The notes: generated from the letters alone by a model not told the origin. A stretch of DNA of 64,000 nucleotides from an uncultured Hyphomicrobiales bacterium (GCA_964625235.1 CAZVAZ010000001.1:857-64856), one strand, 5' to 3'; shown: positions 34,695 through 55,600, counted from the stretch's first letter. Numbers and translations are program-made.

Positions 34695-35109
34695 GAAGTC
34701 AGTAGCCAAGCATGAAATGGAAATACAGCCAGACCGCATGCTGGATGTTTAGTCCCGGAGCGGTTCAGCTTGGCACGGACGGTAAATACCTGCTGTTGTC
34801 CTATGACCAACTCAAGATAGCTCCCCTCACGGTTGAACGCACACAAGATCAGCCGACAATGAAATCAGGAAGGAAAAGTTCATAAACGGAACAGGACCTG
34901 ACAGACACAACCGCAAAAACCGGTAACCGTCAGATCAGGTCCGCACCACTACATTTTAATGGGTCAATTCCACCGTGCCTTGCTTTGAATGACTGCCGGG
35001 GAAAACTGATAGCGTATTTAAAAATTTTGTTCATTTTCTAAACGTAAAATGTATTGATAAATCTGACCAGCAAGTTAACCTGACGATAGCGAAGGATGCC
35101 CGGTTGACC

Positions 35110-40644: not shown

Positions 40645-40752
40645 CTCATTCTCCTTTAATTTTCCGGCCCGGTTCAGGCACACAGATGGCCACCGGGCGA
40701 AATGCAACAACATTACACCGTAAATACGGAATTCTTATCAGTTATGCCCCTC

Positions 40753-41616
40753 TCAGGCCGCAGCAGCCTGGCGCAATGCTGCACCTTTGATCGTCGTTCG
40801 ATGCATGGTTCGTTCATGTGCAGAAAAATCGTAAGGCGTGGCACAGTGCATCGTACAGCGGTTATCCCACATCACAATGTCACCGGCTTGCCATTTGTGG
40901 GCATAGATAAATTCAGGCTGAACGGCGTGAGCGTAGAGCCGTGCCAGCAGAGCCTCGCTTTCGGCAGGTTCCATCCCCTTGATTGAAACCGTGAACCCCT
41001 CATTGACGAACAACGCCTTGCGTCCGCTTTCAGGATGCGTGAGCACAATTCCATGCTCAGTGTCGCGCCACTGGGCCAGTTGCTCCGCCGTTGGTGCGGC
41101 ACGTTTTCCACCTTCGGCCATTTTCATATAGCGGTGGCGGTAGGAATGAATGGCAGTTCGCCCTTCGATCAACGCCTTGGTTTCATCATCCAGCGCCGCA
41201 TATGCTGCGTACATGTCGGTATAGAGCGTATCGCCACCTTCGGGTGGCACGATAAGGCCGTGCAGTATCGACCCCATCGGCGGAACAAGCTCATATGTCA
41301 TGTCGGAATGCCAATAGGCACCGCCGTTATCCAGCGGCTTGACACCGCCGCGCCCGCGGTTGGACAGCACGAGTATTTCGGGATGGGCAGGTAAAAGCCA
41401 ATCCTTTACGGTGTGATCCTGCAGGTCGCCTAAATGGCGGGAAAAGGCAATATGTTGTTCTTCGGTAATTTTTTGACCGCGCAGCACCAGAATTGAATGG
41501 TCCCACCACGCCTGACGGATTGCTGCAATTGTTTTGGCATCCACAGGCTTTGACAGGTCAATGCCCTCGACTTCAGCAACAAAAGCATTACCTGTCTTTT
41601 TCAACGACATTGTCAT
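40753..41616 (-). CDS. TauD/TfdA-family Fe(II)/2-oxoglutarate dioxygenase (taurine dioxygenase or AtsK-like)
   Basis: WHSDMTYELVPPMGSILHGLIVPPEGGDTLYTDM (H-x-D facial-triad region) and a C-terminal CTMHCATPYD region. Confidence 0.85.
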   Translation of the reverse strand: MTMSLKKTGNAFVAEVEGIDLSKPVDAKTIAAIRQAWWDHSILVLRGQKITEEQHIAFSRHLGDLQDHTVKDWLLPAHPEILVLSNRGRGGVKPLDNGGAYWHSDMTYELVPPMGSILHGLIVPPEGGDTLYTDMYAAYAALDDETKALIEGRTAIHSYRHRYMKMAEGGKRAAPTAEQLAQWRDTEHGIVLTHPESGRKALFVNEGFTVSIKGMEPAESEALLARLYAHAVQPEFIYAHKWQAGDIVMWDNRCTMHCATPYDFSAHERTMHRTTIKGAALRQAAAA

Positions 41617-41625: not shown

Positions 41626-42528
41626 CTAACGCTGCATGCCCCACCGGTTAACGGTGCGACGCTCAATATTCCTGAACACTATATTTTCTACGAAAAATCC
41701 AATCAGAATGACCATAAACAGACCGGCAAAAACGCCGTCTGTATCGATGTTCTGGCTCGATTCGAAAATGTACCAGCCAAGGCCGCCGCTGCCTGATGAT
41801 GCACCAAACACCAACTCGGCACCAATCAGCGTTCGCCAGGCAAACGCCCAGCCAATTTTCATGCCGGCAAGGATTGAGGGTAAGGCTGCGGGAACGAGAA
41901 TTTTCCAGACATAGCCGAAACCTTTCAAGCCATAATTTCGCCCGATCATCCGCAAAGTCTGGCTTACACCTTCAAAGCCGCTGTGGGTGCTGAGGGCCAC
42001 CGCCCACAAAACCGAGTGGATGAGAACGAACACCAGGCTTGCTGTGCCAAGGCCAAACCACAGCATGGCCAAGGGCAAAAGAGCAATGGCGGGTAACGGA
42101 TTGAACATGGCGGTTGACATGGAAATAAAGTCACTGCCAAACCGTGAAACAGTCGCCCACAGGATCAGGATAGCGGCCAGGAACAATCCGGCAGTGTAGC
42201 CGATGAGCAATACTTTTATCGAAAACCAGACCTTCCAAATGAGATCGCTGTAGAACAGATCCCTGATCAGCGTCGAAAAAGACACCCAGAAACTCGGCAG
42301 CATTAAAGGTTCGACATCCAATCCAACCGTATAGACCTGCCAGGCAACGACCAGACTGAGCAGAATGGTGAACTTGCGAACGCCGTCGATATTCCAGATG
42401 CGCTCAAGCGTTGACAGTTTGCGCGCAACTTCAGTCGTTTGCGCCTGTTCAATACCTGAAACTTCAAATTCCGGACGGAAGACCAGTTGCGGAATTGAGT
42501 TTTTTTCATTTTTTACCGGAGTGTTCAT
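41626..42528 (-). CDS. ABC transporter permease, SsuC/TauC family (second of two)
   Basis: MFNPLPAIALLPLAMLWFGLG core. ATG 42528 overlaps the upstream stop (ATGA). Confidence 0.85.
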   Translation of the reverse strand: MNTPVKNEKNSIPQLVFRPEFEVSGIEQAQTTEVARKLSTLERIWNIDGVRKFTILLSLVVAWQVYTVGLDVEPLMLPSFWVSFSTLIRDLFYSDLIWKVWFSIKVLLIGYTAGLFLAAILILWATVSRFGSDFISMSTAMFNPLPAIALLPLAMLWFGLGTASLVFVLIHSVLWAVALSTHSGFEGVSQTLRMIGRNYGLKGFGYVWKILVPAALPSILAGMKIGWAFAWRTLIGAELVFGASSGSGGLGWYIFESSQNIDTDGVFAGLFMVILIGFFVENIVFRNIERRTVNRWGMQR

Positions 42529-43424
42529 CGTGCCTGCATCCCCCATTTGCGGATCGTAAGGCTCTCGATTTTGTTAAAGACGACGGTTTCAACCACAACG
42601 CCTACTAAAATGACCATGAACAATCCGGCAAATACATAAGCGATGCGCAAATCCATCTGGCTGGCGAAAATGAACCAGCCAAGACCACCGGACGCTCCTT
42701 CGCTGGTATCCGAGATGGAGCCGCCGAACACCAGTTCGGCTGCAATCAGCGTGCGCCACGCATAGGACCAGCCGATTTTAAGACCCATCAGTATTTGCGG
42801 GAAAGCGGCAGGGATAAGAAGCTTGACGACGTAAACAATACCGCGCAGGCCGTAATTGCGCCCGACCATGCGCTGGGTTTCGCTGACGCTCATAAAACCC
42901 ACATGTGCATTAAGGGCAACCGGCCAGATAACCGAATGCAACAGCGTGAAAATAATAGCATCGGCACCGAGCCCGAACCACAACAGAGCCAGCGGCAAAA
43001 GAGCAATCGCGGGCAACGGATTGAGCATTGCTGTTAGCGTCGAGAGAATATCACTGCCAAAACGCGTTGTCGCCGCGGCTGTGGTCAGCAAAGTTGCAAT
43101 CACGATACCGATTACATAGCCGGTTATCAGTACGGTGATTGAATTCCACACCATATAAAGAAGTTGTTCGCTGAACACGGCATCGGCCAGTGCTAATGCG
43201 GTCGCCGAGAATTTCGGCATGATCAACTCGGAAACACCGCTAAATTGCGAATAAACTTCCCATACGATGATCAGCATCACCAGGATGGAAAGCTTGCGCA
43301 CGGAATTCATGTCCGATATGCGCTCCATCAGCGTCAGTTTGCGCGCAACATCCGCCTTACTGGCTTTGCCAAGGTCGCTGGCCTCAAATTCCGGGCGGAC
43401 AAGAACGTCGGGAATTTTACTCAT
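42525..43424 (-). CDS. ABC transporter permease, SsuC/TauC family (first of two)
   Basis: MLNPLPAIALLPLALLWFGLG core, paralogous to the downstream permease. TGATG overlap with the ATPase stop. Confidence 0.85.
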   Translation of the reverse strand: MSKIPDVLVRPEFEASDLGKASKADVARKLTLMERISDMNSVRKLSILVMLIIVWEVYSQFSGVSELIMPKFSATALALADAVFSEQLLYMVWNSITVLITGYVIGIVIATLLTTAAATTRFGSDILSTLTAMLNPLPAIALLPLALLWFGLGADAIIFTLLHSVIWPVALNAHVGFMSVSETQRMVGRNYGLRGIVYVVKLLIPAAFPQILMGLKIGWSYAWRTLIAAELVFGGSISDTSEGASGGLGWFIFASQMDLRIAYVFAGLFMVILVGVVVETVVFNKIESLTIRKWGMQAR

Positions 43425-44272
43425 CAGCTCTTGTCTCCGGCCTGAATTTCATCTTCCAGGATTCTGTCCGCGAATAACATGTCGTGGATGCGCTGCTGCA
43501 CCCTGGTAAACTCTTTGGTGCCGACATTTTCGTGGTTGAGATCAAAGGCGTTGAGTTCGGCCTTGACCTGACCGGGATGGGGGGAGAGTACCAAAATTCT
43601 GCTGCCGACAATAAGCGCTTCTTCAATGGAGTGGGTTACGAACAGCACCGTAAAGTGGGTGTCCTCCCACAATTGCAGCAGCTCTTTTTGCATTTGCAGA
43701 CGCGTAAGCGCATCAAGTGCTGCGAATGGTTCATCCATCAACAACACGTCCGGCTCCATCGCCATACCGCGCGCTATCGCGACGCGCTGTTTCATACCGC
43801 CTGACAGCATATGCGGATATGTGTCTTCAAAACCACTCAGCTTGACCTTCTGGATATACTCCATGGCGATATCGTTGGCCTCAGCCGCACTGCTGGATTT
43901 ACCACCATTTTGAAGCGCGAAAGTGATGTTTTGCTTGACTGTCTTCCACGGCAGCAACTGGTCGAATTCCTGAAACACCATGACCCGGTCGGGTCCGGGG
44001 TCGGAAATTTCCTTACCCTTGAGACGAATGGCACCTTCCACCGGCTTCATGTAACCGGCAATGCCCTTCAGCAGGGTTGACTTGCCACAGCCTGAGGGGC
44101 CGAGAAGTACGAACCTGTCAGCCGGATAGACATCGAACCCGACGCGATATGTCGCGGTGATCAGATGCTCTTTGGTCTTGTACTGAAGCGTGACCCCGTC
44201 AACCTCAAGAATCGGTTTGGCGTCAGCTGCAGCGGGCGTGGAGCCCGCTGCAGTTGTATTTTTCGTATTCAT
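43424..44272 (-). CDS. ABC transporter ATP-binding protein, SsuB/TauB family
   Basis: Walker A GPSGCGKSTLLK, signature LSGGMKQRVAIARG and Walker B LLMDEP. Confidence 0.9.
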   Translation of the reverse strand: MNTKNTTAAGSTPAAADAKPILEVDGVTLQYKTKEHLITATYRVGFDVYPADRFVLLGPSGCGKSTLLKGIAGYMKPVEGAIRLKGKEISDPGPDRVMVFQEFDQLLPWKTVKQNITFALQNGGKSSSAAEANDIAMEYIQKVKLSGFEDTYPHMLSGGMKQRVAIARGMAMEPDVLLMDEPFAALDALTRLQMQKELLQLWEDTHFTVLFVTHSIEEALIVGSRILVLSPHPGQVKAELNAFDLNHENVGTKEFTRVQQRIHDMLFADRILEDEIQAGDKS

Positions 44273-44275
44273 AGA

Positions 44276-45322
44276 TCAACTACCGTCCTGATCGTAGTTA
44301 TTTTCCCAGTAGTAGTCTTTCCAGCTCGTTGGCATATTCTTGATGGAGCCGATGGAATTCATGAATTTCGCAAATTCCATGGTCCGCTCCGGTTTGTACG
44401 AATACAGCATCTCGTTGGGATCGCCGATCATCTTTTCCACATCGGCAAGTGCCAGCTTGGATTTGGTGAAGCGAACATACAGTGCTGCTGCATCTTTCTT
44501 GTTGCCGTTGATCCAGTCAATCGCCGTGCGATATGAACTGGCAACGCAGTCATAAAGCTTGGGATTGGATTTTTTCCACTTCTCCTTATTATACATGGCA
44601 ACGGTGGAATGGCGTCCGCCGAGCACATCATAAGAAGTGAGAACTGTGCGTATTTTGTCACTTTTCAGTTCCATAAAAGAAGTCGGCAGAGTGGCAAAAT
44701 GGCTCTTCACCGCCTGACCACCGGCCATAAGGGCTGCCATTGCTGAGGGATGTTTCATCGAAACCGTCATCGAATCAAGTTTGAATGCCTGATCTGCGCC
44801 CCATTTTTTCTTTGCGGCCATTTGCAGAACCACCGCCTGTATTGATACCTTGACCGAAGGTGTTGCGATTTTGTGATCTTCCAGTCCGACAAAGTCCTCA
44901 ATCTTGGTGACCCGCGGATCGTTGGTATTCAACTTGAGCGGCATGGCTGAAAGCGTCATCATGGCGCGAACATTAAGGCGACCTTTGGTTTTGTCCCAGA
45001 GCTTCAGAAGCGGGCCCATACCCCCGGCTGCAAAATCCACATTGTCAGACAACAGAGCCTGGTTGACAGCGGCACCGCCACTGAAGCGATGCATGGTGAC
45101 CTTGATGTCGCCAAGGCCGGCTTTGGACGCACAGCCCTGCACCAGCTTTTTGTCAACGACCACATGCATGGGGAGATAAAGCAGCCCGAATTGCTGGGCA
45201 AATCTCACCTGGTTGGCTTCCTGTGCAAAAGCGGTTACCGGTATAGAAGTCCCGGCGATCGCAAGGATTGCCACACTGGCGGCAATTCTGCGAATTGGAT
45301 GTTTTTTAAAAGTTTTCGTCAC
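44276..45322 (-). CDS. ABC transporter substrate-binding protein, NMT1/SsuA-like
   Basis: Signal peptide ending AFAQE. 348 aa periplasmic protein leading a sulfonate/nitrate-type ABC operon. GTG start 8 nt after GGAGG. Confidence 0.75.
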   Translation of the reverse strand: MTKTFKKHPIRRIAASVAILAIAGTSIPVTAFAQEANQVRFAQQFGLLYLPMHVVVDKKLVQGCASKAGLGDIKVTMHRFSGGAAVNQALLSDNVDFAAGGMGPLLKLWDKTKGRLNVRAMMTLSAMPLKLNTNDPRVTKIEDFVGLEDHKIATPSVKVSIQAVVLQMAAKKKWGADQAFKLDSMTVSMKHPSAMAALMAGGQAVKSHFATLPTSFMELKSDKIRTVLTSYDVLGGRHSTVAMYNKEKWKKSNPKLYDCVASSYRTAIDWINGNKKDAAALYVRFTKSKLALADVEKMIGDPNEMLYSYKPERTMEFAKFMNSIGSIKNMPTSWKDYYWENNYDQDGS

Positions 45323-45433: not shown

Positions 45434-46258
45434 TCACTCCGCCGCCACTGCCAGACAATCCGGCCCCACGACACTGAGACCAACGCGCAAGGCTTCGGTT
45501 TCAAAAACATCATGAGGCATTACATTGGCCAGATTGACATCCGGGCCAAATTCCGAAATCAGAAATTTCTTAAGATCATAAACGTCGCAATTATGCGTGC
45601 CGGGTACCCACGGTCCGATCAACTCGAAAATCACCCGGCTCACATCAAGGCCGTCGCGAAGCTCGCTCAGTAACGCCCGGTTGGGCTCACCATTGATGAG
45701 AAGCTCTGCACCCTCCACCAGAACGACGTCCGCTCCGGCATCAAAACATTCCTCCGCCTGTGCAATAAGTGTTGCTGCACCGGTGTCTTCGCTTTTCGAG
45801 CCGACTTCACCATGGACCTCCAGGCCGCAGTCTACGGCAGTACGTATCAGGGTCCGGCGCGCCTGACTGTCCAGCGGCACGCAATTGTCCGACACTTCAA
45901 TTGCTTCGAAACCAAGTCGTTTAGCTTCTTCAAAATACGGTTTCGCGCTTGCCAGGCCTTGCGTTGCATATATATATTCGAGGAACTGGCCGCCGATAAA
46001 CGGATGCACATTATGGTTTTTATACAGCGCTATCTTTTGCAGCAGATAGTCTTCTTCATAAAGCCGGGCAGTGCCGGCAACGAACTTGGCCAGATCGATA
46101 AATGGCGCATTGAGATCGAGCCATTCCCGCTGTGCGCCCAGCGGCAGGCCCCAGTCCATCATCATCGTCACCCCGCTTTTGCGCGGCTTGTCCATGGAGC
46201 GATCAACTGAACGCGGAACAAGGGAGAAAGGCTCCGAATGTGACACAGGACCTGTCAT
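45434..46258 (-). CDS. Phosphosulfolactate synthase (ComA) family protein
   Basis: DKPRKSGVTMMMDWGLPLG...FIDLAKFVAGTARLY...HPFIGGQFLEY...AKRLGFEAIEVSDNCVPL...GLEVHGEVGSK follows the ComA/YitD family pattern. ATGA overlap with the upstream GntR gene. Confidence 0.75.
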   Translation of the reverse strand: MTGPVSHSEPFSLVPRSVDRSMDKPRKSGVTMMMDWGLPLGAQREWLDLNAPFIDLAKFVAGTARLYEEDYLLQKIALYKNHNVHPFIGGQFLEYIYATQGLASAKPYFEEAKRLGFEAIEVSDNCVPLDSQARRTLIRTAVDCGLEVHGEVGSKSEDTGAATLIAQAEECFDAGADVVLVEGAELLINGEPNRALLSELRDGLDVSRVIFELIGPWVPGTHNCDVYDLKKFLISEFGPDVNLANVMPHDVFETEALRVGLSVVGPDCLAVAAE

Positions 46259-47148
46259 TCCAACCTCTCCGAAAGCTCAAGAGGCAGGTGGCCGGGGGGA
46301 AGAAAAACCTGCTGGTAGGTTGCGGGCGCATCCCGGTAGGAGCGGCCAAGGATTTGCCAGAATGTGCCGAAGCTGCCCTCGGCAAGCCCCAGTTTTTTGC
46401 AAACATCAGGAGCGAATTGTTCGCACTGCACCAGATGCTCGAAACGAAAGGTGGGCATGTTGAAGGTCTTGTTGAGGTACTCGCGCAAGGTCAGCCCGCT
46501 CAATTCCTCAGGAGTTCGCTCAAGCAAGGATCCGCATCGTTCGAACGGCAGATAGAACCGGGTAAATCCTTTAAAGCGATCAGCAACATTCATGATGCGC
46601 TCTATTCGAACCAGCGATTTTCCAGTAGTCAGAAATTCCGCCCAGGGAAATTTGAGTCCCTCCGCCACGGGGTCAATTTTCGCAATGGACTCAACGTGCA
46701 GATATATGGGCAGAAGTGGTTGACTATTGTCTGACCTGAAACGGAAATGGAGCAGTTCGACCTTTGCGACCTTTTTTTCATCTGAGAGATCGGCTTGCGA
46801 GGCAGCACCGGAAACGAACGTGCCCATCCCAGCGCGCCGGAAGACAACGCCCTGTTCCACAAGAGCGTTCATTGCCTTTTGAATTGTACCCAGGCTGATG
46901 GGCAGGGTATCCATCAGGTCTCTTTCACCCGGCATCTTTGAACCTGGTCTGTATTCGCCGGATTCAATCGCGTCCAGCATGGCATTGGACAATCGGAGAT
47001 ATTTCGGAACCCTCTCCATGCCAAAGGCCGACGATTGCGAAAATCGCTGTGCAATGGAAGATGTGTTGTGAGTTTGGCTCACGTTCGCATGTCCCCCCAA
47101 TCCCGTTGACACCGGCTCATTAAGGCCATGAACGGGACCTACATCCAT
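46255..47148 (-). CDS. GntR-family transcriptional regulator (HutC/UTRA-like effector domain likely)
   Basis: wHTH YLRLSNAMLDAIESGEYRPGSKMPGERDLMDTLPISLGTIQKAMNALVEQGVVFRRAGMGTFV. The start may be ATG 47019 rather than 47148. Confidence 0.8.
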   Translation of the reverse strand: MDVGPVHGLNEPVSTGLGGHANVSQTHNTSSIAQRFSQSSAFGMERVPKYLRLSNAMLDAIESGEYRPGSKMPGERDLMDTLPISLGTIQKAMNALVEQGVVFRRAGMGTFVSGAASQADLSDEKKVAKVELLHFRFRSDNSQPLLPIYLHVESIAKIDPVAEGLKFPWAEFLTTGKSLVRIERIMNVADRFKGFTRFYLPFERCGSLLERTPEELSGLTLREYLNKTFNMPTFRFEHLVQCEQFAPDVCKKLGLAEGSFGTFWQILGRSYRDAPATYQQVFLPPGHLPLELSERLE

Positions 47149-47169
47149 AAACTATATAGCTTTATAGCT

Positions 47170-47625
47170 TTATGAGGTGGCGCTGTCAATGTCATCTTGC
47201 GTCCTCCTGATGATTGTCAGTCTGCCCGTGGCCGGATTAACCTCGACAATGTCGCCGGTTTCAACGAAGCCGGTTACATCCTGCTCGAAACGGTCCAGCA
47301 ACGGCAAATCCGCGTAAGCTGCGCCTTGCGCCATGATCGGATTGGCAAAATTGAGCACCAGTGCCTTCGGCCCCATGTTGCGCGACACCATTTCCCTGAG
47401 CATCCAGGCAGAGGCGACACCGCCCTTGGCGGCATTGAGAATGAGGATCCTATCCACATAGCTCTGGCCAAACAGCCTGTGCTGCGGCCGCGAAAACACT
47501 CCCTTCAACCGGTCCAGATCATAACGCGCACTAAAGTTATCCAGCGCTACCAGAGCCTCGCCCTGGACCGTCTGCCCAATCCCGGTATGGCCTTTGAGAA
47601 TTCTGACTTCTGCTGTCGTGGTCAT
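47170..47625 (-). CDS. Aconitase X small (swivel, DUF126) subunit
   Basis: VQGEALVALDNFSARYDLD...GQSYVDRILILNAAKGGVASAWMLREM pattern. 4-nt overlap with the DUF521 gene upstream. Confidence 0.75.
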   Translation of the reverse strand: MTTTAEVRILKGHTGIGQTVQGEALVALDNFSARYDLDRLKGVFSRPQHRLFGQSYVDRILILNAAKGGVASAWMLREMVSRNMGPKALVLNFANPIMAQGAAYADLPLLDRFEQDVTGFVETGDIVEVNPATGRLTIIRRTQDDIDSATS

Positions 47626-48875
47626 CGCACCAGCCTTCCCTTGATGGCTGATTCCACGCAGCTCTCCAGCGATGCCAGCACCGGCTCATAGCCATAACCG
47701 CCAATGATATTGACCAGCTTGGCAGAATTGGTCAGCAGCCGCTTCCATCCGTTCGCTTCGCCGATTTCGCGGGCGCACATCTGATAAAAACAAACGCCCT
47801 GAAGCAGCATGGCACCTGAGCCCTCGATCTTTGCCGTTATTCCCATGCGGTCGGCGGCTGATTTCACTTCCGGCGACACTGTGGCGATAACAGCAACCTT
47901 TTCATTGATGTGGCGGCCATCAAGCAAATCTGCAAGCGCACTAATTTCAATCAGTGACAGTTGCGGAGCAGCGAAAACCACCACATCCACAACGTCGTCG
48001 GCGGGCCAGTAAGCCTCGATAAAGGCATCGATATCGCCTTTGCTGACCGGCGTCATTGTTTGCGGCTGGTCAACCATCGCCACGCGTCCATCGGCAGCTT
48101 CCGGCGTAACACCGGGCATATGAAACAGCGGCGTTGAACCGTAGCTCGCCAGGGCAGCGCCAAAATGCTTGAGTTCGTCCGAATTAGGTCTTTGATCGAG
48201 CGAGGCAAGTTCAATCACCGGCACATCCCAGTAAGAATCCATCTGCCGCCCGATGATACCGCCAAGTGCGCCCCATTGGGCAAAGTCATCGGGACGATCA
48301 CTCACCTTGAATATCTTACTCCCCCGGCGGCATTCGTCGAGATGAAAACCATACCGCGGTGCCCGCCCGGTCAGTGCCGAAGCAAGTGCGGAAGGCCCGC
48401 CCTGAAAATTGGTGCGCGCGCCCTGCACAGAATTAGCATAGATTGTCGAGCCGGTATCACCAAAGGCCAGATGTTCGCCCAGCACCGGCGGCATGATGGT
48501 CTGGTAGTTGATGCAGGTATCTGTCATCATCACACCGAGGGCACGAAAGGCATCAATGGCGCGTTGCTCCAGATCGGCCTGGGCATCACTTTGACCAAGG
48601 GCTTTATAATGCTCGAAATCGATCCCGCGCGGGTCAGTTACCGTCGGTACCTTGACGTGGCGAAGTTCCTCAGGGTACCCCGCCAGCTTTTCAAGGAATA
48701 AAACACCATCCTCACCCAGCGATTCGGTGTCGGCCATCAGATGCACCTGGGCAATCTCGACACAATCTTCGGCATCGAAAAAATTTCCGACCGTGACGAT
48801 CTGCTCCATACCGAACTGGCGCGGCCAGCCGTGTTTGCCTTCGAGCATGTCCTGCTCATATTCACTCAATCGCAT
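47622..48875 (-). CDS. Aconitase X catalytic (DUF521) large subunit
   Basis: MRLSEYEQDMLEGKHG N-terminus and the AFGDTGSTIYANSVQGARTN region are typical of DUF521. ATG 48875 follows GGAGGG; the track start is 48911. Confidence 0.75.
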   Translation of the reverse strand: MRLSEYEQDMLEGKHGWPRQFGMEQIVTVGNFFDAEDCVEIAQVHLMADTESLGEDGVLFLEKLAGYPEELRHVKVPTVTDPRGIDFEHYKALGQSDAQADLEQRAIDAFRALGVMMTDTCINYQTIMPPVLGEHLAFGDTGSTIYANSVQGARTNFQGGPSALASALTGRAPRYGFHLDECRRGSKIFKVSDRPDDFAQWGALGGIIGRQMDSYWDVPVIELASLDQRPNSDELKHFGAALASYGSTPLFHMPGVTPEAADGRVAMVDQPQTMTPVSKGDIDAFIEAYWPADDVVDVVVFAAPQLSLIEISALADLLDGRHINEKVAVIATVSPEVKSAADRMGITAKIEGSGAMLLQGVCFYQMCAREIGEANGWKRLLTNSAKLVNIIGGYGYEPVLASLESCVESAIKGRLVR

Positions 48876-48914
48876 TGACCCTCCAAACCCTCCTGTACCT
48901 GTTGGTTGCATTGC

Positions 48915-50291
48915 TTACGAAACCCCGGCTTCCTCAAGCCGGTAACTTGCCTCTTCAACATAGCGCGTGGTCGCCAGTTCCTCGCAAAAAACAGGATCGC
49001 GCAGAACCTGATCGAGAAACGCCAGATTTGTCGAAACACCTTCGATTTTAATTTCGCCCAGCGCCTGCAACATCTGTGCAATGGCCTCACCACGGGTTTT
49101 TCCCCGCGTAATGACCTTGGCGATCATCGGATCATAGTAGGGCGTGATACGATCACCTTGCCGCAGGCCGGTATCAATACGCAGCACGTCGCTTTCCTCG
49201 GGAAAGTCAAAGCATGTCAATTCTCCCGGCGAGGGCAGAAAATTTTTCTCCGGGCGCTCGGCATATATGCGGCATTCGATGGCATGGCCATCGGCTGAAA
49301 TCGCACTCTGCTCAGGCAGTATGAATTCTCCCGCCGCCAGTTCAATCTGGGCCGCCACCAGATCGGCCCCGGTAATCATCTCGGTTACGGCATGCTCAAC
49401 CTGTATGCGGGTGTTCATTTCCAGGAAATAGAAGACCTGTGCTTCGCGGTCATAGATGAATTCGACCGTCCCGGCACCGCGATAATTGACATGTTTGACC
49501 AGCGCCAGTGCGGCAGCGCTTAAGGCGGTGCGTATGTCATCAGACAGGCCCGGTGCCGGGGCTTCTTCGATGATCTTTTGAAAACGCCGCTGCACCGAAC
49601 AATCCCGGTCGAGAAAATGCACACCCCTGCCATCGCCCATGCCAAAGACCTGAACCTCGATATGGCGGGCACGTGGGATAAAGCGTTCCAGATAGACCGT
49701 ACCATCGCCGAAACTGCGTTCGGCCAGGCTCTGTGTGGTCTCAACCTGGGCCTGCAAATCCTGGGGGTCGGTGACGAGGCGCATGCCGATACCGCCGCCG
49801 CCTGCCGCCGCTTTAACCAGAAGCGGATAGCCAACTTCTTTGCCCGCCGCCGCCAACCCGGTTGTATCGCCGGGCGAAAACCGTGCACTCCCCGGCACCA
49901 CGGGAATACCGGCGGCACGGGCTATTTCCCGGGCGCGCTCCTTGTCCCCCATGGCCTCAATGGTTTCAGGCCGCGGCCCGATCCAGATGCAGTCCATACG
50001 CTCCACTGCTTCGGCAAAGCGAGCGTTTTCGGCTAAAAATCCGTACCCCGGGTGCACGGCGTCCGCGCCCGATACACGTAGCGCCATAAGCAAAGCATCC
50101 TGGTTGAGATAACTCTTGGCCACTGGTGCGGGGCCGATCTCAAGACTATGGCTGGCCTCAGCCACATGCAGTGCGTCTGCATCAGCTTGTGAATAGACCG
50201 CCACCGTTTTGATGTTCATCGCACGGCAGCTGCGAATGATCCGGCAGGCGATTTCGCCGCGATTGGCGATAAAAACTTTGGCGATGCTCAT
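48915..50291 (-). CDS. Biotin carboxylase subunit (ATP-grasp) of a biotin-dependent carboxylase
   Basis: KVFIANRGEIACRIIRSCRAMNIKTVAVYS, GYPLLVKAAAGGGGIGMR, EMNTRIQVEH. Confidence 0.9.
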   Translation of the reverse strand: MSIAKVFIANRGEIACRIIRSCRAMNIKTVAVYSQADADALHVAEASHSLEIGPAPVAKSYLNQDALLMALRVSGADAVHPGYGFLAENARFAEAVERMDCIWIGPRPETIEAMGDKERAREIARAAGIPVVPGSARFSPGDTTGLAAAGKEVGYPLLVKAAAGGGGIGMRLVTDPQDLQAQVETTQSLAERSFGDGTVYLERFIPRARHIEVQVFGMGDGRGVHFLDRDCSVQRRFQKIIEEAPAPGLSDDIRTALSAAALALVKHVNYRGAGTVEFIYDREAQVFYFLEMNTRIQVEHAVTEMITGADLVAAQIELAAGEFILPEQSAISADGHAIECRIYAERPEKNFLPSPGELTCFDFPEESDVLRIDTGLRQGDRITPYYDPMIAKVITRGKTRGEAIAQMLQALGEIKIEGVSTNLAFLDQVLRDPVFCEELATTRYVEEASYRLEEAGVS

Positions 50292-50301
50292 ACCGGGTAC
50301 C

Positions 50302-51897
50302 TCATGGCGCTACACCCGCCCTGGCACGAGGCCCGAGATTGATCTTCAGGCGCTGTTGAGCCAGTGCCACATAATCGCACAAGACAGGTCTGGTTTCGCG
50401 CGGGTCTATAATCTCCTCCACGCCCAGCGCTTCAGCTGTGCGGAAGGGCGAGGTATAGGCGCGCAACTCAGCTTCCAGTTCCTTCTCGCGCGCCTTGGGG
50501 TCATCAGCTGCTGCGATTTCACGGCGAAAGGCTGCCGCCACGCCGCCTTCGACCGGCAGTGATCCCCATTCGCCACTGGGCCAGGCAAGCTTCAGATCGA
50601 TGTCGTTCTTGTTGCAGGTGGCCATACCGGCCATGCCGTAGCATTTGCGGATAACGAGCGTCAGCGTTGGCACTTTTAACTGCCCGGCGGTATAGACAAC
50701 GCGCATACCCTCGCGCAATGTGCCTTCCTGTTCCGCCTTGAGGCCGACCATAAAGCCCGGCACGTCGACAAGAAATACCAGCGGGATGTGGAAGGTATCG
50801 CACAGCTCCATAAAGTGTATCTGCTTGCGTGCGGCATCGGCATCCATGGCACCGCCATAGATCATCGGATTATTGGCAATGATACCCACAGGCCGCCCGC
50901 CAAGGCGTGCCAGCATGGTGATAACGGCGCGGCCAAAAGCAGGCCGGATTTCAAACCCGGAATTGCGGTCGATGACCAGTTCAACCAGCTTTTTCATATT
51001 GTACGGCCGGGTCCGCTGTTCGGGCACTATGCTTAAAAGTGCCTCTTCGCAGCGTTCAACGGGATCTTCTACGGGCAGAACCGGCGGCAGCTCCCAGACA
51101 TTCTGCGGCATGAAGGAGAGGAAACGTTTGATCTGGACAAAAGCATCTTCTTCGCTTGCCGCCACATTGTGTATGGAGCCGGCCTTTTTGACCGCAACAT
51201 CCGGGCCGCCCAAGTCTTCCTTGGAGATGGTCTGTCCCAAAGAGCGCTTCACCACCGGCGGTCCGGCCGCGAATATCTGGCTGGTACCTTCAACCATGAC
51301 GGAAAAATGCGACAGGATGGCGCGGCCTGCCGGACCGCCCGCTGCAGTTCCCAGAACAGCGGAGATCACCGGAACCTCACCCAGCAATCCGACCGAGCGC
51401 TCGAAGCCGTCAACACCGGGAAAGACAACAAACCCCCGTCGTTTGGCCGATGTAACCGAGCCACCGGCACCATCAATGAGATTTATCAGCGGTATCTTGT
51501 AGTGATAGGCGAGGTCCTCAATATACCCGCCTTGACCGCCCTTGCGGCGCATGGCACCAAAACTGATGCCGCCACGGACTGTAAAATCCTCACCGCCAAT
51601 AGCAACCGGGCGTCCTTCGATGCGGGCTGTTCCGGCCACATAAGTGGCGGGGGTCACTTTTTTCAGCTTTAAATTGTCATCATATTCTCCGGTTCCAGCC
51701 AGCGTGCCGATTTCGCGAAAGCTGCTTTTATCGGTGAGCTGGGCGAGGCGCTCACGCACGGTGAGGCGGCCCGCGTCATGCTGGCGTGCGATATTTTCCG
51801 CACCCCCCATCTCAGCGGCAAAGGCTCGTCTGCGGTTGAGTTCATCTATCTGTTCAGCCCAGAATCCGGCACCTTCTTCTAGCTCTCGATCAGGCAT
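50302..51897 (-). CDS. Carboxyltransferase subunit (PccB/MccB-type), paralog 2
   Basis: Crotonase-fold CT pattern: GRLTVRERL, GRPVAIGGEDFTVRGG, AGGPAGRA, GRPVGIIANNP. Confidence 0.85.
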   Translation of the reverse strand: MPDRELEEGAGFWAEQIDELNRRRAFAAEMGGAENIARQHDAGRLTVRERLAQLTDKSSFREIGTLAGTGEYDDNLKLKKVTPATYVAGTARIEGRPVAIGGEDFTVRGGISFGAMRRKGGQGGYIEDLAYHYKIPLINLIDGAGGSVTSAKRRGFVVFPGVDGFERSVGLLGEVPVISAVLGTAAGGPAGRAILSHFSVMVEGTSQIFAAGPPVVKRSLGQTISKEDLGGPDVAVKKAGSIHNVAASEEDAFVQIKRFLSFMPQNVWELPPVLPVEDPVERCEEALLSIVPEQRTRPYNMKKLVELVIDRNSGFEIRPAFGRAVITMLARLGGRPVGIIANNPMIYGGAMDADAARKQIHFMELCDTFHIPLVFLVDVPGFMVGLKAEQEGTLREGMRVVYTAGQLKVPTLTLVIRKCYGMAGMATCNKNDIDLKLAWPSGEWGSLPVEGGVAAAFRREIAAADDPKAREKELEAELRAYTSPFRTAEALGVEEIIDPRETRPVLCDYVALAQQRLKINLGPRARAGVAP

Positions 51898-52103
51898 AGT
51901 ATCTGGTCCTCCTCCACGGATTCTTCGGGCATCACTTTGATCTCAACAAGAACACCGGCCACGGGTGCCTCGACCGGGATTTCCATTTTCATAGATTCCA
52001 GAATCATGATCAGATCACCCTCAGAAATACTGTCTCCAACGGCTTTTTCGACTTTCCATACGGTGCCAATCACCTCAGAGGTAACCTCGGTTGTTGCCAT
52101 CAA
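51879..52103 (-). CDS. Biotin carboxyl carrier protein (stand-alone lipoyl/biotinyl domain)
   Basis: Biotinylation motif ILESMKMEIPVEAPVAGVL in a 74-aa protein. Confidence 0.85.
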   Translation of the reverse strand: MMATTEVTSEVIGTVWKVEKAVGDSISEGDLIMILESMKMEIPVEAPVAGVLVEIKVMPEESVEEDQILCLIES

Positions 52104-52117
52104 TATTTCTCCCTTGT

Positions 52118-53656
52118 TTAAAAAGTCGTCGGCCAGGCGGCCATACGGTGTGCGCCGACATTGCCCGACAGGCGCATTTGGTGAATTTCAAGCTGCTGGA
52201 TCAGGTATCGCCGTGTCTCAGTTGGATCTATCACCGCCTGGGCTGCGTAAATTTCGGCAAGACCATAGGCAGAGTTGTCCTTTTCCATCTGCGCGCGGAT
52301 TTCCTGCTTGCGTTCATCCGTTGCCTGCTGACCCCATGTTACGATCTCGGTGGCAAAGTGGGGGTCCATGAAGCTGATCTCGGCGCTCGGCCACACAGCA
52401 ACATCATCCGAGTTGCGCCCGCCGCCCATGTTCAGGTAGGCTTGGCCGTAGCTCTTGCGCATGATGATTGAAAGTTTCGGCACTGTGCACATCTGCAGGG
52501 CCTGCATGAAATTCATGATTTTCCCCGGTGCCTTCTGCTTCTCGCCTTCGATGCCGATAACAAAACCCGGCGTATCGACGAGCAGTATCAGGGGGATGTT
52601 GAAGCTGTCGCACATAACTGTGAAGCGCGTTGCTTTCTCGCAACCGGCAACATCGAGCGCACCGGCCTTGCCCATGGGGTTGGAGGCGATAAAGCCGACG
52701 GTGCGCCCGTCCATCCGCGCAAGGCCGGTTACCGCCGTGCGCCCGAATTTCGGCTTGAATTCAAAAAAACTGTCGAGATCAACCAGGCATTCAATAATCT
52801 TGCGCACATCATAAGCACGCTTGCGGCTTTCGGGAAGAATGTCAGCAATACGCACGGAGCCCTCATCGCTGCCAGCGGGCACGGACACACGCGGCGGTGG
52901 CTCGCCGCAATGAGACGGCATATAGCTTAAGAACTTCCTGATTTCGGCCAGTGCTTCTTCGTCGGTTTCAACCACACGGTCGATGAGGCCGGAAACCTGA
53001 GCATGCAGTTTCCATCCGCCCAACTCCTCCGCCTCCACCTTCTGGCCGATGGCAAACGAAGCAAGGCCGGGGCTTGCCACTGCCATGATCGCGCCTTTGC
53101 GCATGACGACGAAATCGGAAAGACACGTATACCAGGCCGAAGACCCGTAACATTGCCCGAGCACGGCTGCAGCCCACGGGGTCTGGCGGGTGCGCACATA
53201 TTGCTGCGGGTCGTGGCCAAGGTTGGATCCCATGCCCCTGGAGCCCATGTTGTCGGGCATGCGGGCACCGGAGGACTCACCAAAAAAGACCAGCGGCAGG
53301 CCACGCTCCGTCGCCACCCGTTTGACGTGGCCGACCTTTTTCATGTTGGTGGCGCTGGATGAAGCGCCTTTTACGGTAAAGTCATTGGACGCAATGGCCA
53401 CCATGCGACCGTCCACTTTGGCAAATCCGGTAACCTTGCCGTCAGCGGGGGTTTTTTCGCGGTCTTCCGCTACCATGGAGGAAACCGCCAGCAGCCCGGT
53501 TTCCACCCAGGTCCCGGGGTCGATGAACGCCTCAATCCGGCTGCGCGCATTGAGCAGACCTTGAGCTTCGCGCCGTGCCAACCGGTCAGGCCCGCCCATG
53601 GCTCTTGCCTTGGCTTCGCGGGTTTTCAGGTCTTTGAGCCTGTCATCTAAACTCAT
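52118..53656 (-). CDS. Carboxyltransferase subunit (PccB/MccB-type), paralog 1
   Basis: GLLNARSRIE, GRMVAIASNDFTVKGAS, GRTVGFIASNP. Confidence 0.85.
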   Translation of the reverse strand: MSLDDRLKDLKTREAKARAMGGPDRLARREAQGLLNARSRIEAFIDPGTWVETGLLAVSSMVAEDREKTPADGKVTGFAKVDGRMVAIASNDFTVKGASSSATNMKKVGHVKRVATERGLPLVFFGESSGARMPDNMGSRGMGSNLGHDPQQYVRTRQTPWAAAVLGQCYGSSAWYTCLSDFVVMRKGAIMAVASPGLASFAIGQKVEAEELGGWKLHAQVSGLIDRVVETDEEALAEIRKFLSYMPSHCGEPPPRVSVPAGSDEGSVRIADILPESRKRAYDVRKIIECLVDLDSFFEFKPKFGRTAVTGLARMDGRTVGFIASNPMGKAGALDVAGCEKATRFTVMCDSFNIPLILLVDTPGFVIGIEGEKQKAPGKIMNFMQALQMCTVPKLSIIMRKSYGQAYLNMGGGRNSDDVAVWPSAEISFMDPHFATEIVTWGQQATDERKQEIRAQMEKDNSAYGLAEIYAAQAVIDPTETRRYLIQQLEIHQMRLSGNVGAHRMAAWPTTF

Positions 53657-54906
53657 GATTTATCTCCATCTGGCCCAAGGCCGGGACCGGCGACAACGCC
53701 ATCACGGGCCAGCGTTTCAATTTCGGCTTCGGCCAGATTGAGTTCAGTCTTGAGGACATCCACCGTATCCGCGCCGATATCGCGCCCGGCCCAGCGAACC
53801 GAGCCCGGCGTTGCAGATAATTTTGGTACAACACCGGTGACGGTTACCGGCCCCAACTCTCGGTCCTCGACTTCTAAAAGCATGTCGCGGCTGCGGTAGT
53901 GGGGATCAGCGAAAATATCCTCAACTGTATAAATCGGTGCGGCGGGAACTTTAGCTGCCTTGAGGGCCGTTTCAACCTGCTCCAGATCGAGAGAACGGGT
54001 CCAGTTTGCAATAATGGCATCACAGGCATCTTCATTCTCCACCCGCTTTAAAGCGGTGGCAAAACGCGGATCGTTTTCCAGCGCAGGCTTCCCCATGGCT
54101 TTTGCCAGGCGGGCAAAAACCGGGTTGGAGGCTGCTGCCAGAACGATATGGCGGTGATCGCGGGTCTCATAAAGAGAGTTCGGTGTATTGCCGGGCAGTC
54201 TCGGGCCTGCCCGCCTGGCGATCTCTCCCAATTGCTGAAAGGCCGGGATATGCGGTTCCATGAAACTGAAAGAACCCTCATAAAGTGCTGAATCGACAAT
54301 CTGTCCTTGCCCTGTGTTAACACGTTCCAGCAGCGCCATTACCGCACCGAAGGCACCATATAACCCGGCGACATAGTCGGTCAGCGAAGTGGCGATGCGC
54401 GGGGGAGGGCGGTCCGGGTCTCCGGTAATCTCGCGTAGTCCGCTGACCGCCTCGCAGACAACGCCGTAGCCGCCGCGGCTACTGTAAGGCCCGTCCTGGC
54501 CAAAGCCGCTGATGCGCACCATGACCAGACCCGGATTGACCGCGCTCAATGTGTCATAGCCCAGCCCCCAGCGCTCCATGGTTTGGGGGCGGAAGTTTTC
54601 GATGACAATATCGGCCTTTTCGCACAGGCGGCGCACCAGAGTGCGGCCTTCTTCAGTGCGCAGATTAATTGAGACCGCACGCTTGCCGCGCAATATCGAT
54701 GCGCCATAAAGCGAACGCCCCTTGCACTGGCGGCCCATGGAGCGCACCGCATCTCCCTCGCCCTGTTCGACCTTGATGACATCAGCGCCGAAGTCGGCCA
54801 GAAGGCGGGCGCAAAACGGTCCGGCGACAGTCGAACCCAGTTCAATGGCACGCATCCCGGCCAGCGGACCTGATGCCTGTGGTTCAGTTTTCGCTTCGGC
54901 CATCAT
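53653..54906 (-). CDS. Family III CoA-transferase (CaiB/BaiF type)
   Basis: PLAGMRAIELGSTVAGPFCARLLADFGADVIKVE is a typical N-terminus. ATG 54906 or 54903 follows AGGGGA; the track start 54954 would overlap the GntR gene. Confidence 0.85.
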   Translation of the reverse strand: MMAEAKTEPQASGPLAGMRAIELGSTVAGPFCARLLADFGADVIKVEQGEGDAVRSMGRQCKGRSLYGASILRGKRAVSINLRTEEGRTLVRRLCEKADIVIENFRPQTMERWGLGYDTLSAVNPGLVMVRISGFGQDGPYSSRGGYGVVCEAVSGLREITGDPDRPPPRIATSLTDYVAGLYGAFGAVMALLERVNTGQGQIVDSALYEGSFSFMEPHIPAFQQLGEIARRAGPRLPGNTPNSLYETRDHRHIVLAAASNPVFARLAKAMGKPALENDPRFATALKRVENEDACDAIIANWTRSLDLEQVETALKAAKVPAAPIYTVEDIFADPHYRSRDMLLEVEDRELGPVTVTGVVPKLSATPGSVRWAGRDIGADTVDVLKTELNLAEAEIETLARDGVVAGPGLGPDGDKS

Positions 54907-54910: not shown

Positions 54911-55600
54911 CTACAAAAGATATTTCTGATAATTTTTGAACCAGTCGCGGGCACTGCGAATATTGGCCCGCTTCAGTTGCTCAGCTTCGTCGGCCTTTCC
55001 TGCACGCATGGCGGCGAGGATTTCGCGGTGCTGGCGCATGCCCTCCTGCATCCGCCCGGGTACCAGTATGAGACGCCGGATCAGCACCTGGGTGCGGTCA
55101 TAAAGACTGTCGAGAAGATTGCTCAGCACTTCATTGTCGGCAGCAGTGATACATTTTCGCCGGAACTGGTAGTTGGCTTGCGCATAGGCATCGAAATCGT
55201 TTCGGGCCAGCGTGTCTTCCATAGCGGGGCCGAACAGGTCAATCAGTTCATCCCAGGTCTCGGGCGGTGCCTTTTGCGTCGCCAGGCGCACCATCTGTGC
55301 TTCCAGAGCCTCGCGGACCTCGAACAGTTCCTTGACCTTGTCTGCTTCGAGCCGGGTAACGATGGCACCGCGATTGGGGATTCGCTCGATCAGCCCGCGT
55401 TCTTCAAGTATCCCGAACGTTTCACGGATGCGGGCCCGGGATACGCCGAATTCGTCGGCTAAATCCTGCTCACGCAACCGCGATCCGGGGGCAAGTTCAT
55501 GATTGACGATGCGCCGCCGCAACTCACTGAGCAGCTTTTCCGCTCCCGGATTGAGGCTGTCCAGCCCTATCACTTTTCTGCTTGTTTTTCGCACCGCCAC
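54911..55600 (-). CDS. GntR-family regulator with FCD effector domain
   Basis: wHTH LSELRRRIVNHELAPGSRLREQDLADEFGVSRARIRETFGILEERGLIERIPNRGAIV plus an alpha-helical C-terminal domain. Confidence 0.85.
   Translation of the reverse strand: MAVRKTSRKVIGLDSLNPGAEKLLSELRRRIVNHELAPGSRLREQDLADEFGVSRARIRETFGILEERGLIERIPNRGAIVTRLEADKVKELFEVREALEAQMVRLATQKAPPETWDELIDLFGPAMEDTLARNDFDAYAQANYQFRRKCITAADNEVLSNLLDSLYDRTQVLIRRLILVPGRMQEGMRQHREILAAMRAGKADEAEQLKRANIRSARDWFKNYQKYLL

Follow-up and report, generated by a model that had tools for sequence, protein, structure and literature searches.

An uncharacterised aconitase X subclass, a biotin-dependent carboxylase with two carboxyltransferases and organosulfur genes in a single gene row of an uncultured Hyphomicrobiales bacterium

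The DNA analysed here, hereafter the window, is a stretch of 64,000 nucleotides from an uncultured Hyphomicrobiales bacterium (GCA_964625235.1 CAZVAZ010000001.1:857-64856), in which an unbroken row of minus-strand genes runs from 55600 to 36896. This row brings together a family III CoA-transferase, a biotin-dependent acyl-CoA carboxylase with two distinct carboxyltransferases (CT1 and CT2), a two-subunit aconitase X (AcnX) and a set of genes related to organosulfur compounds. We tentatively consider it, with somewhat less than even confidence, as a composite island of two separable modules for the catabolism of organosulfur acids. The reading is suggested by comparisons with other genomes, where the carboxylase and AcnX mostly occur apart and where each of them recurs with the sulfur-related genes in several independent arrangements.

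Gene content and organisation of the row

Gene identities were assigned by Pfam and NCBIfam profile searches of the window proteins. They bear out those proposed in an initial annotation of positions 47170 to 54906, namely the CoA-transferase, two carboxyltransferases (CTs), biotin carboxyl carrier protein (BCCP), biotin carboxylase (BC) and both AcnX subunits. All eight genes of this carboxylase and AcnX part, including the regulator that precedes it, were found on the minus strand. The initial annotation had closed the feature at 47170, which proved too short, since the same-strand row continues as follows:

54911..55600, minus strand: GntR-family regulator carrying an FCD ligand domain, opening the carboxylase unit (PF00392 and PF07729)
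53653..54906, minus strand: family III (CaiB/BaiF) CoA-transferase, dicarboxylate type (PF02515, positions 1–366 of 366)
52118..53656, minus strand: carboxyltransferase paralog CT1, 512 aa (PF01039)
51879..52103, minus strand: stand-alone BCCP, 73–74 aa (PF00364, ESMKME biotinylation motif)
50302..51897, minus strand: 531-aa carboxyltransferase paralog CT2, the module's core CT (PF01039)
48915..50291, minus strand: BC, AccC-like, no fused BCCP (PF00289, PF02786 and PF02785, i.e. Biotin_carb_N, CPSase_L_D2 and Biotin_carb_C; PRK08591, 576 bits)
47622..48875, minus strand (open reading frame, ORF, from 48911 or 48875): AcnX large (catalytic) subunit, AcnX-L, 417 aa (PF04412, E 1.3e-107)
47170..47625, minus strand: AcnX small (swivel) subunit, AcnX-S (PF01989, E 1.8e-20)
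46255..47082, minus strand: HutC-type GntR regulator with UTRA domain (PF00392 and PF07702)
45434..46258, minus strand: ComA-like protein of the phosphosulfolactate synthase family (PF02679, E 8e-56)
41626..45322, minus strand: ATP-binding cassette (ABC) importer of the taurine/aliphatic-sulfonate type, with an SsuA-like binding protein (45322–44276), an ATPase (44272–43424) and two permeases (43424–41626)
40753..41616, minus strand: TauD-family 2-oxoglutarate dioxygenase (PF02668; 222 bits with the taurine dioxygenase model, cutoff 313)
38359..40713, minus strand: DUF3604 protein, 784 aa, probable metallohydrolase (PF12228; weak CehA/McbA match)
36896..38356, minus strand: formylglycine-type sulfatase, choline-sulfatase-like (PF00884; TIGR03417, 301 bits, cutoff 433)
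35104..36915, plus strand: metallophosphoesterase (Metallophos), probable accessory member, convergent on the sulfatase (PF00149)

The genes were initially described as translationally coupled, which is supported for the CoA-transferase/CT1 and AcnX-L/AcnX-S junctions (overlaps of 4 nt each) and for BCCP/CT2, whose overlap of 19 nt is also present in L084, L172 and L173 (L numbers designate the genome loci compared). Conversely, gaps of 14 and 10 nt separate CT1 from BCCP and CT2 from BC, and AcnX-L starts 39 nt after the BC stop, so that BC and AcnX-L are not coupled in this way. This start was placed at ATG 48875, which has a GGAGGG Shine-Dalgarno sequence 4 nt upstream and gives the length of 417 aa found in the homologs. 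The CoA-transferase begins at ATG 54906, 4 nt past the stop of the GntR(FCD) gene. The HutC-type GntR gene (longest ORF from 47148) likely begins at GTG 47082, its L081 homolog having 275 aa, and overlaps the ComA-like gene by 4 nt. An identical gene order is common to three independent assemblies (L001, L002, L003), so that the row is not an assembly chimera. The source is a Hyphomicrobiales-like alphaproteobacterium. No match for the region was found in E. coli genomes, and a search of the whole window with Rfam gave no RNA family.

Between AcnX-S and the HutC-type GntR gene, a near-consensus promoter-like site (TTGACA–17 nt–TATAAA, 47150–47191, minus strand) overlaps a palindromic box, AGCTATAAAGCTATATAG, which is a candidate operator of the HutC-type regulator. 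The box occurs once in the window and is kept at the same place, upstream of this regulator, in L001–L005; it is also found upstream of AcnX operons in L053 (Magnetovibrio), L036 and L045 (metagenome-assembled genomes, MAGs, of Rhodospirillaceae) and L177 (Pseudorhizobium NT-26 plasmid). A systematic promoter and terminator scan returned matches no commoner than in shuffled sequence, and passed over the TTGACA–17–TATAAA site owing to its requirement at position 6 of the −10 hexamer. On the basis of this promoter-like site and of the conserved box, the row probably comprises two transcription units; AcnX would close the first and probably share a transcript with the carboxylase.

The carboxylase module

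The distribution of the carboxylase was analysed in 84 loci around CT2 homologs, 20 of which had at least 6 kb on both sides. Locus counts, here and below, were derived from tblastn with the window proteins combined with precomputed Pfam calls, the ORF caller having lost genes in GC-rich loci. CT2 orthologs (66–92% identity) belong to many lineages across the 84 loci, and the module is present in marine, soil and plasmid sequences. Its cultured carriers include Variovorax sp. SRS16, Cupriavidus oxalaticus X32, C. necator N-1, Sneathiella and Orrella. The CoA-transferase, the GntR(FCD) regulator immediately before it and the BCCP are found in all 20 well-flanked loci, CT1 in 17 and BC in 15. 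The pairing of two CTs with an unfused BC and BCCP, pointed out as unusual in the initial annotation, is thereby confirmed as a real architecture, and GntR(FCD)–CoA-transferase–CT1–BCCP–CT2–BC is a widespread, self-contained module. Apart from these genes, it has a single regular partner, an organic-anion transporter that frequently lies between CT2 and BC and may be an SsuA-type ABC system, a TAXI/TRAP system or a TctC-type binding protein. In L172 the module stands alone among unrelated genes, and a variant with CT2 and BC and without CT1 occurs in Betaproteobacteria and on Cupriavidus and Variovorax plasmids. BC is not found within 6 kb or more in five of the 20 well-flanked loci (L084, L102 at 10627-11081, L146, L156 and L158); these loci raise the question of whether housekeeping AccC is used or the CT pair works as a transcarboxylase.

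The two paralogs are 32% identical to each other. CT2 has invariant GTAAGGPAG and KCYGMAGM motifs (93 sequences) and CT1 has G-x-C-(Y/F)-G-S-S and K-(S/T)-Y-G-Q-A-Y-L-N, equally invariant (56 orthologs); since each keeps its own active-site motifs, both are predicted to be functional and distinct. They score 250–318 bits with PccB, 12S, MmdA and AccD5, against 135–184 bits with the beta subunits of methylcrotonyl-CoA and geranyl-CoA carboxylases (MCC and GCC) and 80–108 bits with GcdA, and by sequence they are therefore PccB/12S/MmdA-like and not MccB/AtuC/GcdA-like. The analogy with the methylcrotonyl-CoA/methylglutaconyl-CoA branch drawn in the initial annotation does not survive this comparison. 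The Asp of PccB at ScPccB D422 (MePCC-407) is replaced by Met in CT2 (invariant, 93 sequences) and by Leu in CT1 (53 of 56), which argues against a strict propionyl-CoA enzyme as well as against the methylcrotonyl analogy. A hydrophobic residue at this position is a promiscuous signature resembling acetyl-CoA carboxylase (ACC), reportedly described by Diacovich in 2004. At residue 163 of CT2 (51411-51409), adjacent to the counterpart of MePCC Tyr143, 54 of the 93 CT2 orthologs have His and 36 have Asp; a polar side chain at this point of the acyl pocket might touch a polar substituent carried by the substrate.

With a three-domain ATP-grasp BC, a BCCP carrying the MKM motif and crotonase-fold CTs, the module has the predicted composition of a biotin-dependent acyl-CoA carboxylase. 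The CoA-transferase, predicted to be of family III, matches PF02515 over its full length, scores below the cutoff of all NCBIfam equivalogs, and has as closest solved relatives YfdE, formyl-CoA transferase (Frc) and SUGCT, all of them dicarboxylate-type enzymes. A literature search on CoA-transferase-linked carboxylases retrieved no functional assignment for the module.

The aconitase X subclass and its gene contexts

Both AcnX subunits score above the gathering thresholds of PF04412 and PF01989, which places them in the AcnX superfamily, and their two-subunit architecture fits type II; the family matches all remain below equivalog cutoffs (204 bits against 700 for the NCBIfam model of cis-3-hydroxy-L-proline, C3LHyp, dehydratase). 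A search with AcnX-L gave 7,822 related proteins at E ≤ 0.001, a total that includes this subclass along with the other relatives. AcnX enzymes of types I and IIa are C3LHyp dehydratases and type IIb is the archaeal mevalonate-5-phosphate (MVA5P) dehydratase (PMC5144071; PMC8184944), while subclasses IIc–f are uncharacterised and devoid of the landmark residues (PMC8184944). The premise of the initial annotation, with C3LHyp dehydratase in bacteria and MVA5P dehydratase in archaea as the two known functions, was incomplete in passing over both the two-subunit bacterial C3LHyp dehydratases of type IIa and subclasses IIc–f.

The window AcnX was mapped on TkAcnX, its best solved match (7cnr, E 1e-50), and on AtAcnX, with 79–83 family members profiled. 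Three cysteines of AcnX-L are invariant, C133 (Tk C110), C374 (Tk C342) and C418 at a new position; the third cluster ligand of TkAcnX, C283, is Ala315, so that only Cys110 and Cys342 are kept among the ligands. Of the phosphate-binding residues S50, N53 and N79 of TkAcnX, S50 and N79 are replaced by the invariant Asp61 and Asp93, Glu63 being invariant as well; E129, S130 and S131 become D, T and G; K361 is retained, as is the TNS-x-K motif. As for AtAcnX, Met59 takes the place of D203, Gly-Val-Ala that of S70-C71-T72, and C374-F-Y that of C508-X-C510, without C-X-C, all invariant in the family. The small subunit has an invariant AKGGVA(T/S) motif in place of KGSTVGS of TkAcnX, with Gly at the Tk Ser62 position. 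A C3LHyp dehydratase identity is contradicted by the missing equivalents of AtAcnX D203, S70-C71-T72 and C508-X-C510, and an MVA5P dehydratase identity by the changes of TkAcnX S50, N79 and C283 to D, D and A; no hydroxyproline (Lhp) or mevalonate gene was found nearby in the window. Judged on these residues, the window AcnX is neither of the two enzymes and belongs to an uncharacterised subclass, for which literature searches on aconitase X with sulfatase, on AcnX and on DUF521/DUF126 gave no functional assignment.

Among 80 genome loci examined around AcnX-L homologs, a carboxylase stands beside AcnX in three, all near-identical relatives (L001–L003), and is missing from 77; reciprocally, AcnX is present in two of the 84 CT2 loci and missing from 82. 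In the next relatives, L004/L081 (BMS3Bbin10, AcnX identity of 85–86%) and L005 (SZUA-148, 83%), no carboxylase occurs at this site and AcnXLS–GntR–ComA–ABC–TauD–DUF3604–sulfatase is retained; AcnX opens the row there, behind a divergent gene and a gap of 500 bp (L081). Given these counts and this pattern, AcnX is an accessory of the carboxylase and not a subunit or obligate partner, contrary to the integral role that the initial annotation gave it.

At lower identity (55–72%), AcnX pairs are found repeatedly in several contexts. Cultured carriers of AcnX include Hyphomicrobium zavarzinii, Filomicrobium insigne, Sulfitobacter sp. S190 and Pseudorhizobium banfieldiae NT-26. Over the 80 loci, homologs of TctA, from TctCBA transporters, occur in 19, directly upstream of AcnX in several of them, and genes of the TauE/SafE sulfite-exporter family in nine, directly upstream in most; L016 and L017 are minimal TctCBA–TauE–AcnXLS operons. 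A sulfatase gene lies directly upstream of AcnX in about seven loci (including L006, L029, L048, L055, L062 and L080) and a DUF3604 gene in five (L036, L042, L045, L053, L054), with GntR–DUF3604–AcnXLS–glyoxalase-like–TfrB/TfrA-like operons in L036, L042, L045 and L053. Pyridoxal-phosphate enzymes and CoA-transferases are further neighbours, as are glyoxylate/glycolate genes in some loci. A soil alphaproteobacterial MAG (L038, 5600-19800) groups UxaA-like, TfrB-like, TauE, AcnXLS, SsuA-type ABC, TtdAB-like, TfrA-like, 2-hydroxyacid dehydrogenase and Ldh_2 genes, which together resemble an entire pathway acting on a sulfonated C3/C4 acid.

Carboxylase, hydro-lyase and sulfur-related genes are also assembled in other ways. 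In L101/L102 (CT2 80%, AcnX-L 61% identity), GntR–CoA-transferase–CT1–BCCP–CT2(–BC) is followed by a convergent ComA–AcnXL–AcnXS set and then by Metallophos (47% identical to that of the window), TauD and DUF3604 genes, the Metallophos gene thus lying between ComA and TauD. In L093/L173, TauD, type II haloacid-dehalogenase (HAD), ComA, sulfatase and second TauD genes accompany a full carboxylase, and a convergent two-subunit TtdA/TtdB-like Fe-S hydro-lyase occupies the exact position of AcnX in the window. The Variovorax SRS16 plasmid (L171) has a split UxaA hydro-lyase of 96 and 386 aa, the architecture of SuyAB, between CT2 and BCCP–BC, together with an Ldh_2 enzyme and a 2-hydroxyacid dehydrogenase. 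The two-subunit iron-dependent hydro-lyase is hence a recurrent and replaceable companion of the carboxylase, a point in favour of the link that the initial annotation drew between them. Moreover, carboxylase operons contain or adjoin the window-type SsuA ABC importer, with an ATPase 63–73% identical, in L113, L114, L127, L137 and others, and the importer also accompanies AcnX without carboxylase (L038, L043); TauD homologs lie directly upstream of GntR–CoA-transferase in L093, L094 and L173; and ComA-like genes neighbour either AcnX or the carboxylase in L046, L050, L093, L101, L102 and L173. The three modules are thus linked pairwise in different genomes, and the three architectures, with the shared SsuA-type transporter, indicate that the adjacency of carboxylase and AcnX is not random. 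The lack of synteny that the initial annotation would have taken as a sign of fortuitous adjacency is seen in the next relatives, L004/L081 and L005, but not overall, the association recurring in independent arrangements.

Proposed function, alternatives and comparison with known systems

If the row is indeed a composite island, its first unit, from GntR(FCD) to BC, would activate an imported small organic anion through the dicarboxylate-type family III CoA-transferase, with succinyl-CoA as the likely CoA donor. The thioester would then be carboxylated at its alpha carbon by the biotin enzyme of the PCC/ACC type (PCC, propionyl-CoA carboxylase), with its separate BC, 74-aa BCCP and two CTs, into a (substituted) malonyl- or methylmalonyl-CoA that housekeeping enzymes could return to succinyl-CoA. 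The AcnX pair, which heads the operon in the nearest relatives without carboxylase, would have been captured at the 3' end of this unit. The second unit (HutC-type GntR–ComA-like–SsuA-type ABC–TauD–DUF3604–sulfatase), with its own predicted promoter and operator, would ensure uptake and sulfur removal or ester cleavage, the ester and sulfonate groups being possibly taken off by the sulfatase, DUF3604, TauD and ComA-like enzymes. AcnX itself may act as an Fe-S hydro-lyase on a free sulfonated or hydroxylated C3–C4 acid rather than on a CoA ester, its candidate reactions being a sulfolactate-type beta-elimination releasing sulfite and the hydration of sulfoacrylate. Both would fit the TauE, TTT-transporter and sulfatase contexts of AcnX and the presence of TtdAB-like or UxaA/SuyAB-like enzymes at the same gene position. 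By analogy, sulfolactate beta-elimination is a candidate that would share with C3LHyp dehydratase, tartrate dehydratase and SuyAB the logic of an alpha heteroatom and a beta leaving group.

The ComA-like protein, about 30% identical to M. jannaschii ComA (1qwg), scores 190 bits with PF02679 and 163 bits with TIGR03849 (cutoff 280), below equivalog level. No solved relative of the DUF3604 protein was found, and literature on DUF3604 and on catabolic ComA gave no functional assignment for the AcnX subclass or the carboxylase module. Three other assignments were considered: the pairing of the ComA-like protein, as a phosphosulfolactate synthase, with a phosphatase was weakened by the identification of the HAD gene of L173 as a type II haloacid dehalogenase, the Metallophos protein received no support as a SoxB, and the NicO-like membrane gene at 55738 showed no similarity to TauE. 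To our knowledge, the aerobic fate of the carbon of 3-sulfopropanoate or sulfoacetate is largely unknown, and sulfoacrylate reportedly derives from phosphosulfolactate (PSL) in bacterial coenzyme M synthesis. According to a thesis as cited in PMC11489063, 3-sulfopropanoate is degraded via sulfoacrylate and sulfolactate.

A more specific proposal, which we regard as doubtful, is that the AcnX subclass is an Fe-S desulfonating hydro-lyase (sulfo-lyase or sulfoacrylate hydratase), interchangeable with SuyAB- and TtdAB-like enzymes, and that with the ComA-like protein and the two-CT carboxylase and its CoA-transferase it constitutes an undescribed ATP- and biotin-dependent route for the carbon of C2–C3 sulfonates, e.g. 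3-sulfopropanoate or sulfoacetate. Three chemical schemes, for which no direct support was found, were set aside because none explains why most carboxylase loci are devoid of a desulfonating enzyme: carboxylation of 3-sulfopropanoyl-CoA with sulfite elimination to methylenemalonate, a natural glycolyl-CoA carboxylase, and the carnitine-type substrates suggested by the acidic pocket.

Several observations weigh against an organosulfur function of the whole row. Apart from the ABC transporter, most carboxylase loci contain no sulfur-related or desulfonating gene, so that the substrate of the carboxylase may not be a sulfonate, and no compelling chemical reason for an ATP-dependent carboxylation in desulfonation could be found. 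Genes for TauD, sulfatases and ABC systems abound in bacteria of this kind, and the locus counts are not phylogenetically independent. In AcnX, the replacement of KGS by KGG in the small subunit removes the canonical catalytic serine position, and the invariant D61, E63 and D93 of the distal pocket would repel a sulfonate unless bridged by a metal ion. AcnX contexts are moreover mixed, including glyoxylate/glycolate genes (L009-type loci, L177) and SDH/fumarase-like genes (L053, L175; SDH, succinate dehydrogenase). The L177 locus (Pseudorhizobium banfieldiae NT-26 plasmid, 6677-19215), with SulP anion transporter–AcnXLS–malate synthase G–GlcDEF–Acs preceded by TRAP, GntR, choline-dehydrogenase-like and thiamine-diphosphate enzyme genes, ties the subclass to glycolate/glyoxylate metabolism in a way that the sulfur model leaves unexplained. 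Finally, the substrates of all enzymes of the row are predictions from sequence.

The row could alternatively be a fortuitous fusion, in which a CoA-transferase and carboxylase module for a short-chain acid (e.g. propionate-type) was inserted upstream of an unrelated sulfur-scavenging cluster with no shared pathway. The carboxylase-free site of L004, L005 and L081, the L172 module among unrelated genes, the 82 CT2 loci without AcnX and the separate predicted promoter and operator of the downstream genes would all fit; yet two other gene orders likewise bring ComA-like, TauD, DUF3604 or sulfatase, and hydro-lyase genes (52–85% identity) together with the carboxylase, the hydro-lyase undergoes non-orthologous displacement at the same position, and a transporter family is common to both modules, which makes mere chance unlikely in our view. 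It seems still less probable that the genes encode a linear pathway in the style of methylcrotonyl-CoA/methylglutaconyl-CoA, where an acid would be activated with CoA, carboxylated and then (de)hydrated by AcnX instead of a crotonase. The tandem of BC and AcnX, 39 nt apart without terminator, the two-subunit hydro-lyase after BC in three architectures, the dehydration of a 3-hydroxy-3-methyl acid by the closest solved AcnX relative, and the relatedness of the CoA-transferase to SUGCT, a user of hydroxymethylglutarate, speak for such a pathway. It is opposed by the PCC/12S type of the CTs, which are not of the MCC/GCC type, by the mostly separate occurrence of AcnX and carboxylase, by the invariant Asp in place of the phosphate/anion-binding residues of TkAcnX, and by the binding mode of known AcnX enzymes, which recognise a free carboxylate adjacent to the carbons that react (PMC8184944). 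Very improbable, lastly, is an acyl-CoA:acyl-CoA transcarboxylase made of CT1–BCCP–CT2, one CT taking CO2 from a substituted malonyl-CoA made by the CoA-transferase, the other giving it to a second acyl-CoA and BC only priming the cycle: the different, invariant motifs of two CTs flanking one BCCP, their resemblance to the 12S transcarboxylase subunit and MmdA and the five BC-less loci are suggestive, but 15 of the 20 loci contain a BC, as do the CT2-only variants, the BC-less loci could draw on housekeeping AccC, and the paired AccD4/AccD5 of mycobacteria show that a second CT can serve simply to broaden the range of substrates.

The composite island for organosulfur acids, in spite of the points raised above, places two large families, the AcnX subclass and the carboxylase module, in a one-strand organosulfur gene set, suggests small sulfonated or sulfated acids as the substrate class and offers testable handles, namely the candidate operator, the binding protein and the cultured carriers, so that the window could lead to a function for both. 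Should the sulfur reading hold, missing parts of the cycling of sulfonate carbon would be supplied, for instance what becomes of 3-sulfopropanoate, and aconitase X would gain a third chemistry; should it fail, the carboxylase would still be a highly conserved CO2-fixing catabolic module without assigned role.

Elsewhere in the window, a separate plus-strand cluster (27189-34694) upstream of the Metallophos gene comprises an IclR regulator, a Dpp/Opp-type ABC transporter and an amidase. Several redox proteins are encoded nearer the beginning: an 891-aa molybdopterin oxidoreductase with an N-terminal Rieske-3Fe-4S domain, like arsenite oxidase AioA, and an adjacent 194-aa ORF (15692-18969), a di-haem cytochrome c peroxidase (18982–20136), and, at 21461-26318, a 755-aa multihaem cytochrome c with an EB_dh (ethylbenzene-dehydrogenase-like) domain, a 277-aa cytochrome c and a protein of 585 aa with weak similarity to cytochrome bd subunit I. 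Next to each other at 56661-59465 are two proteins unusual in bacteria, a bacterial SET-domain protein of 184 aa and a 595-aa protein with an animal haem peroxidase domain. The regions 8075-12433 and 62157-63515 contain a radical SAM/SPASM protein and a Usp protein, both with PCP_red domains, beside an amine oxidase and, separately, a YcaO cyclodehydratase near a BTAD/TPR regulator, which may mark a locus resembling those of ribosomally synthesised and post-translationally modified peptides (RiPPs).

Compared with known systems, the window AcnX is closest to type IIb (TkAcnX, 7cnr/7cns; A. pernix ApAcnX), with which it shares the two subunits, the equivalents of Cys110 and Cys342, Lys361, TNS-x-K and a conservative Asp for Glu129. 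It differs by Asp61/Asp93 for Ser50/Asn79, Ala for Cys283, the new C418 and Gly for Ser62, and by its bacterial host and the lack of a mevalonate context. C3LHyp dehydratases belong to the same superfamily, and their elimination of a beta leaving group next to an alpha heteroatom, giving a 2-oxo/imino acid, is the chemistry that may apply here; the window enzyme, however, has neither their landmark residues nor Lhp genes nearby, and its similarity is weaker (E 4e-39).

As regards the carboxylase, the archaeal acetyl/propionyl-CoA carboxylase of Metallosphaera and Acidianus consists of three separate subunits, AccC, AccB and PccB. The window resembles it by its separate BC and BCCP and by fused PCC-type CTs of ~520 aa, and differs by a second, 32%-identical CT, a BCCP of no more than 74 aa, and an operon that has its own CoA-transferase, GntR regulator and transporter, in a bacterial and catabolic setting. 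P. shermanii-type transcarboxylase, made of a 12S CT, a 5S oxo-acid CT and a 1.3S carrier and lacking a BC, recalls the two 12S-like CTs and small carrier of the window, which has a BC and no 5S homolog. Two distinct PccB-like CTs with one biotin carrier also characterise the AccD4–AccD5 and AccD2–AccD3 carboxylases of mycobacteria and corynebacteria, unlike the window in their fused BC and BCCP (AccA3), epsilon subunit, role in mycolic acid biosynthesis and lack of a CoA-transferase. Entries of the corresponding PDB 9t97 series were among the matches of both CT1 and CT2.

Finally, the sulfolactate set of Chromohalobacter, Roseovarius and Paracoccus is formed by SlcHFG (a tripartite tricarboxylate transporter, TTT)–SlcC/ComC–SuyAB–DUF81 exporter. 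The window departs from it by a lyase that is AcnX and not UxaA/SuyAB, by the absence of SlcC/ComC dehydrogenases and by a carboxylase that has no place in the known pathway. Conversely, TTT transporter, TauE/SafE (DUF81) and two-subunit Fe-dependent lyase form the minimal operons of L016/L017, and the Variovorax carboxylase island has a split UxaA of SuyAB architecture with Ldh_2. Against this background, the row appears to combine variants of the AcnX superfamily and of biotin-dependent acyl-CoA carboxylases, with the potential for an undescribed organosulfur pathway.

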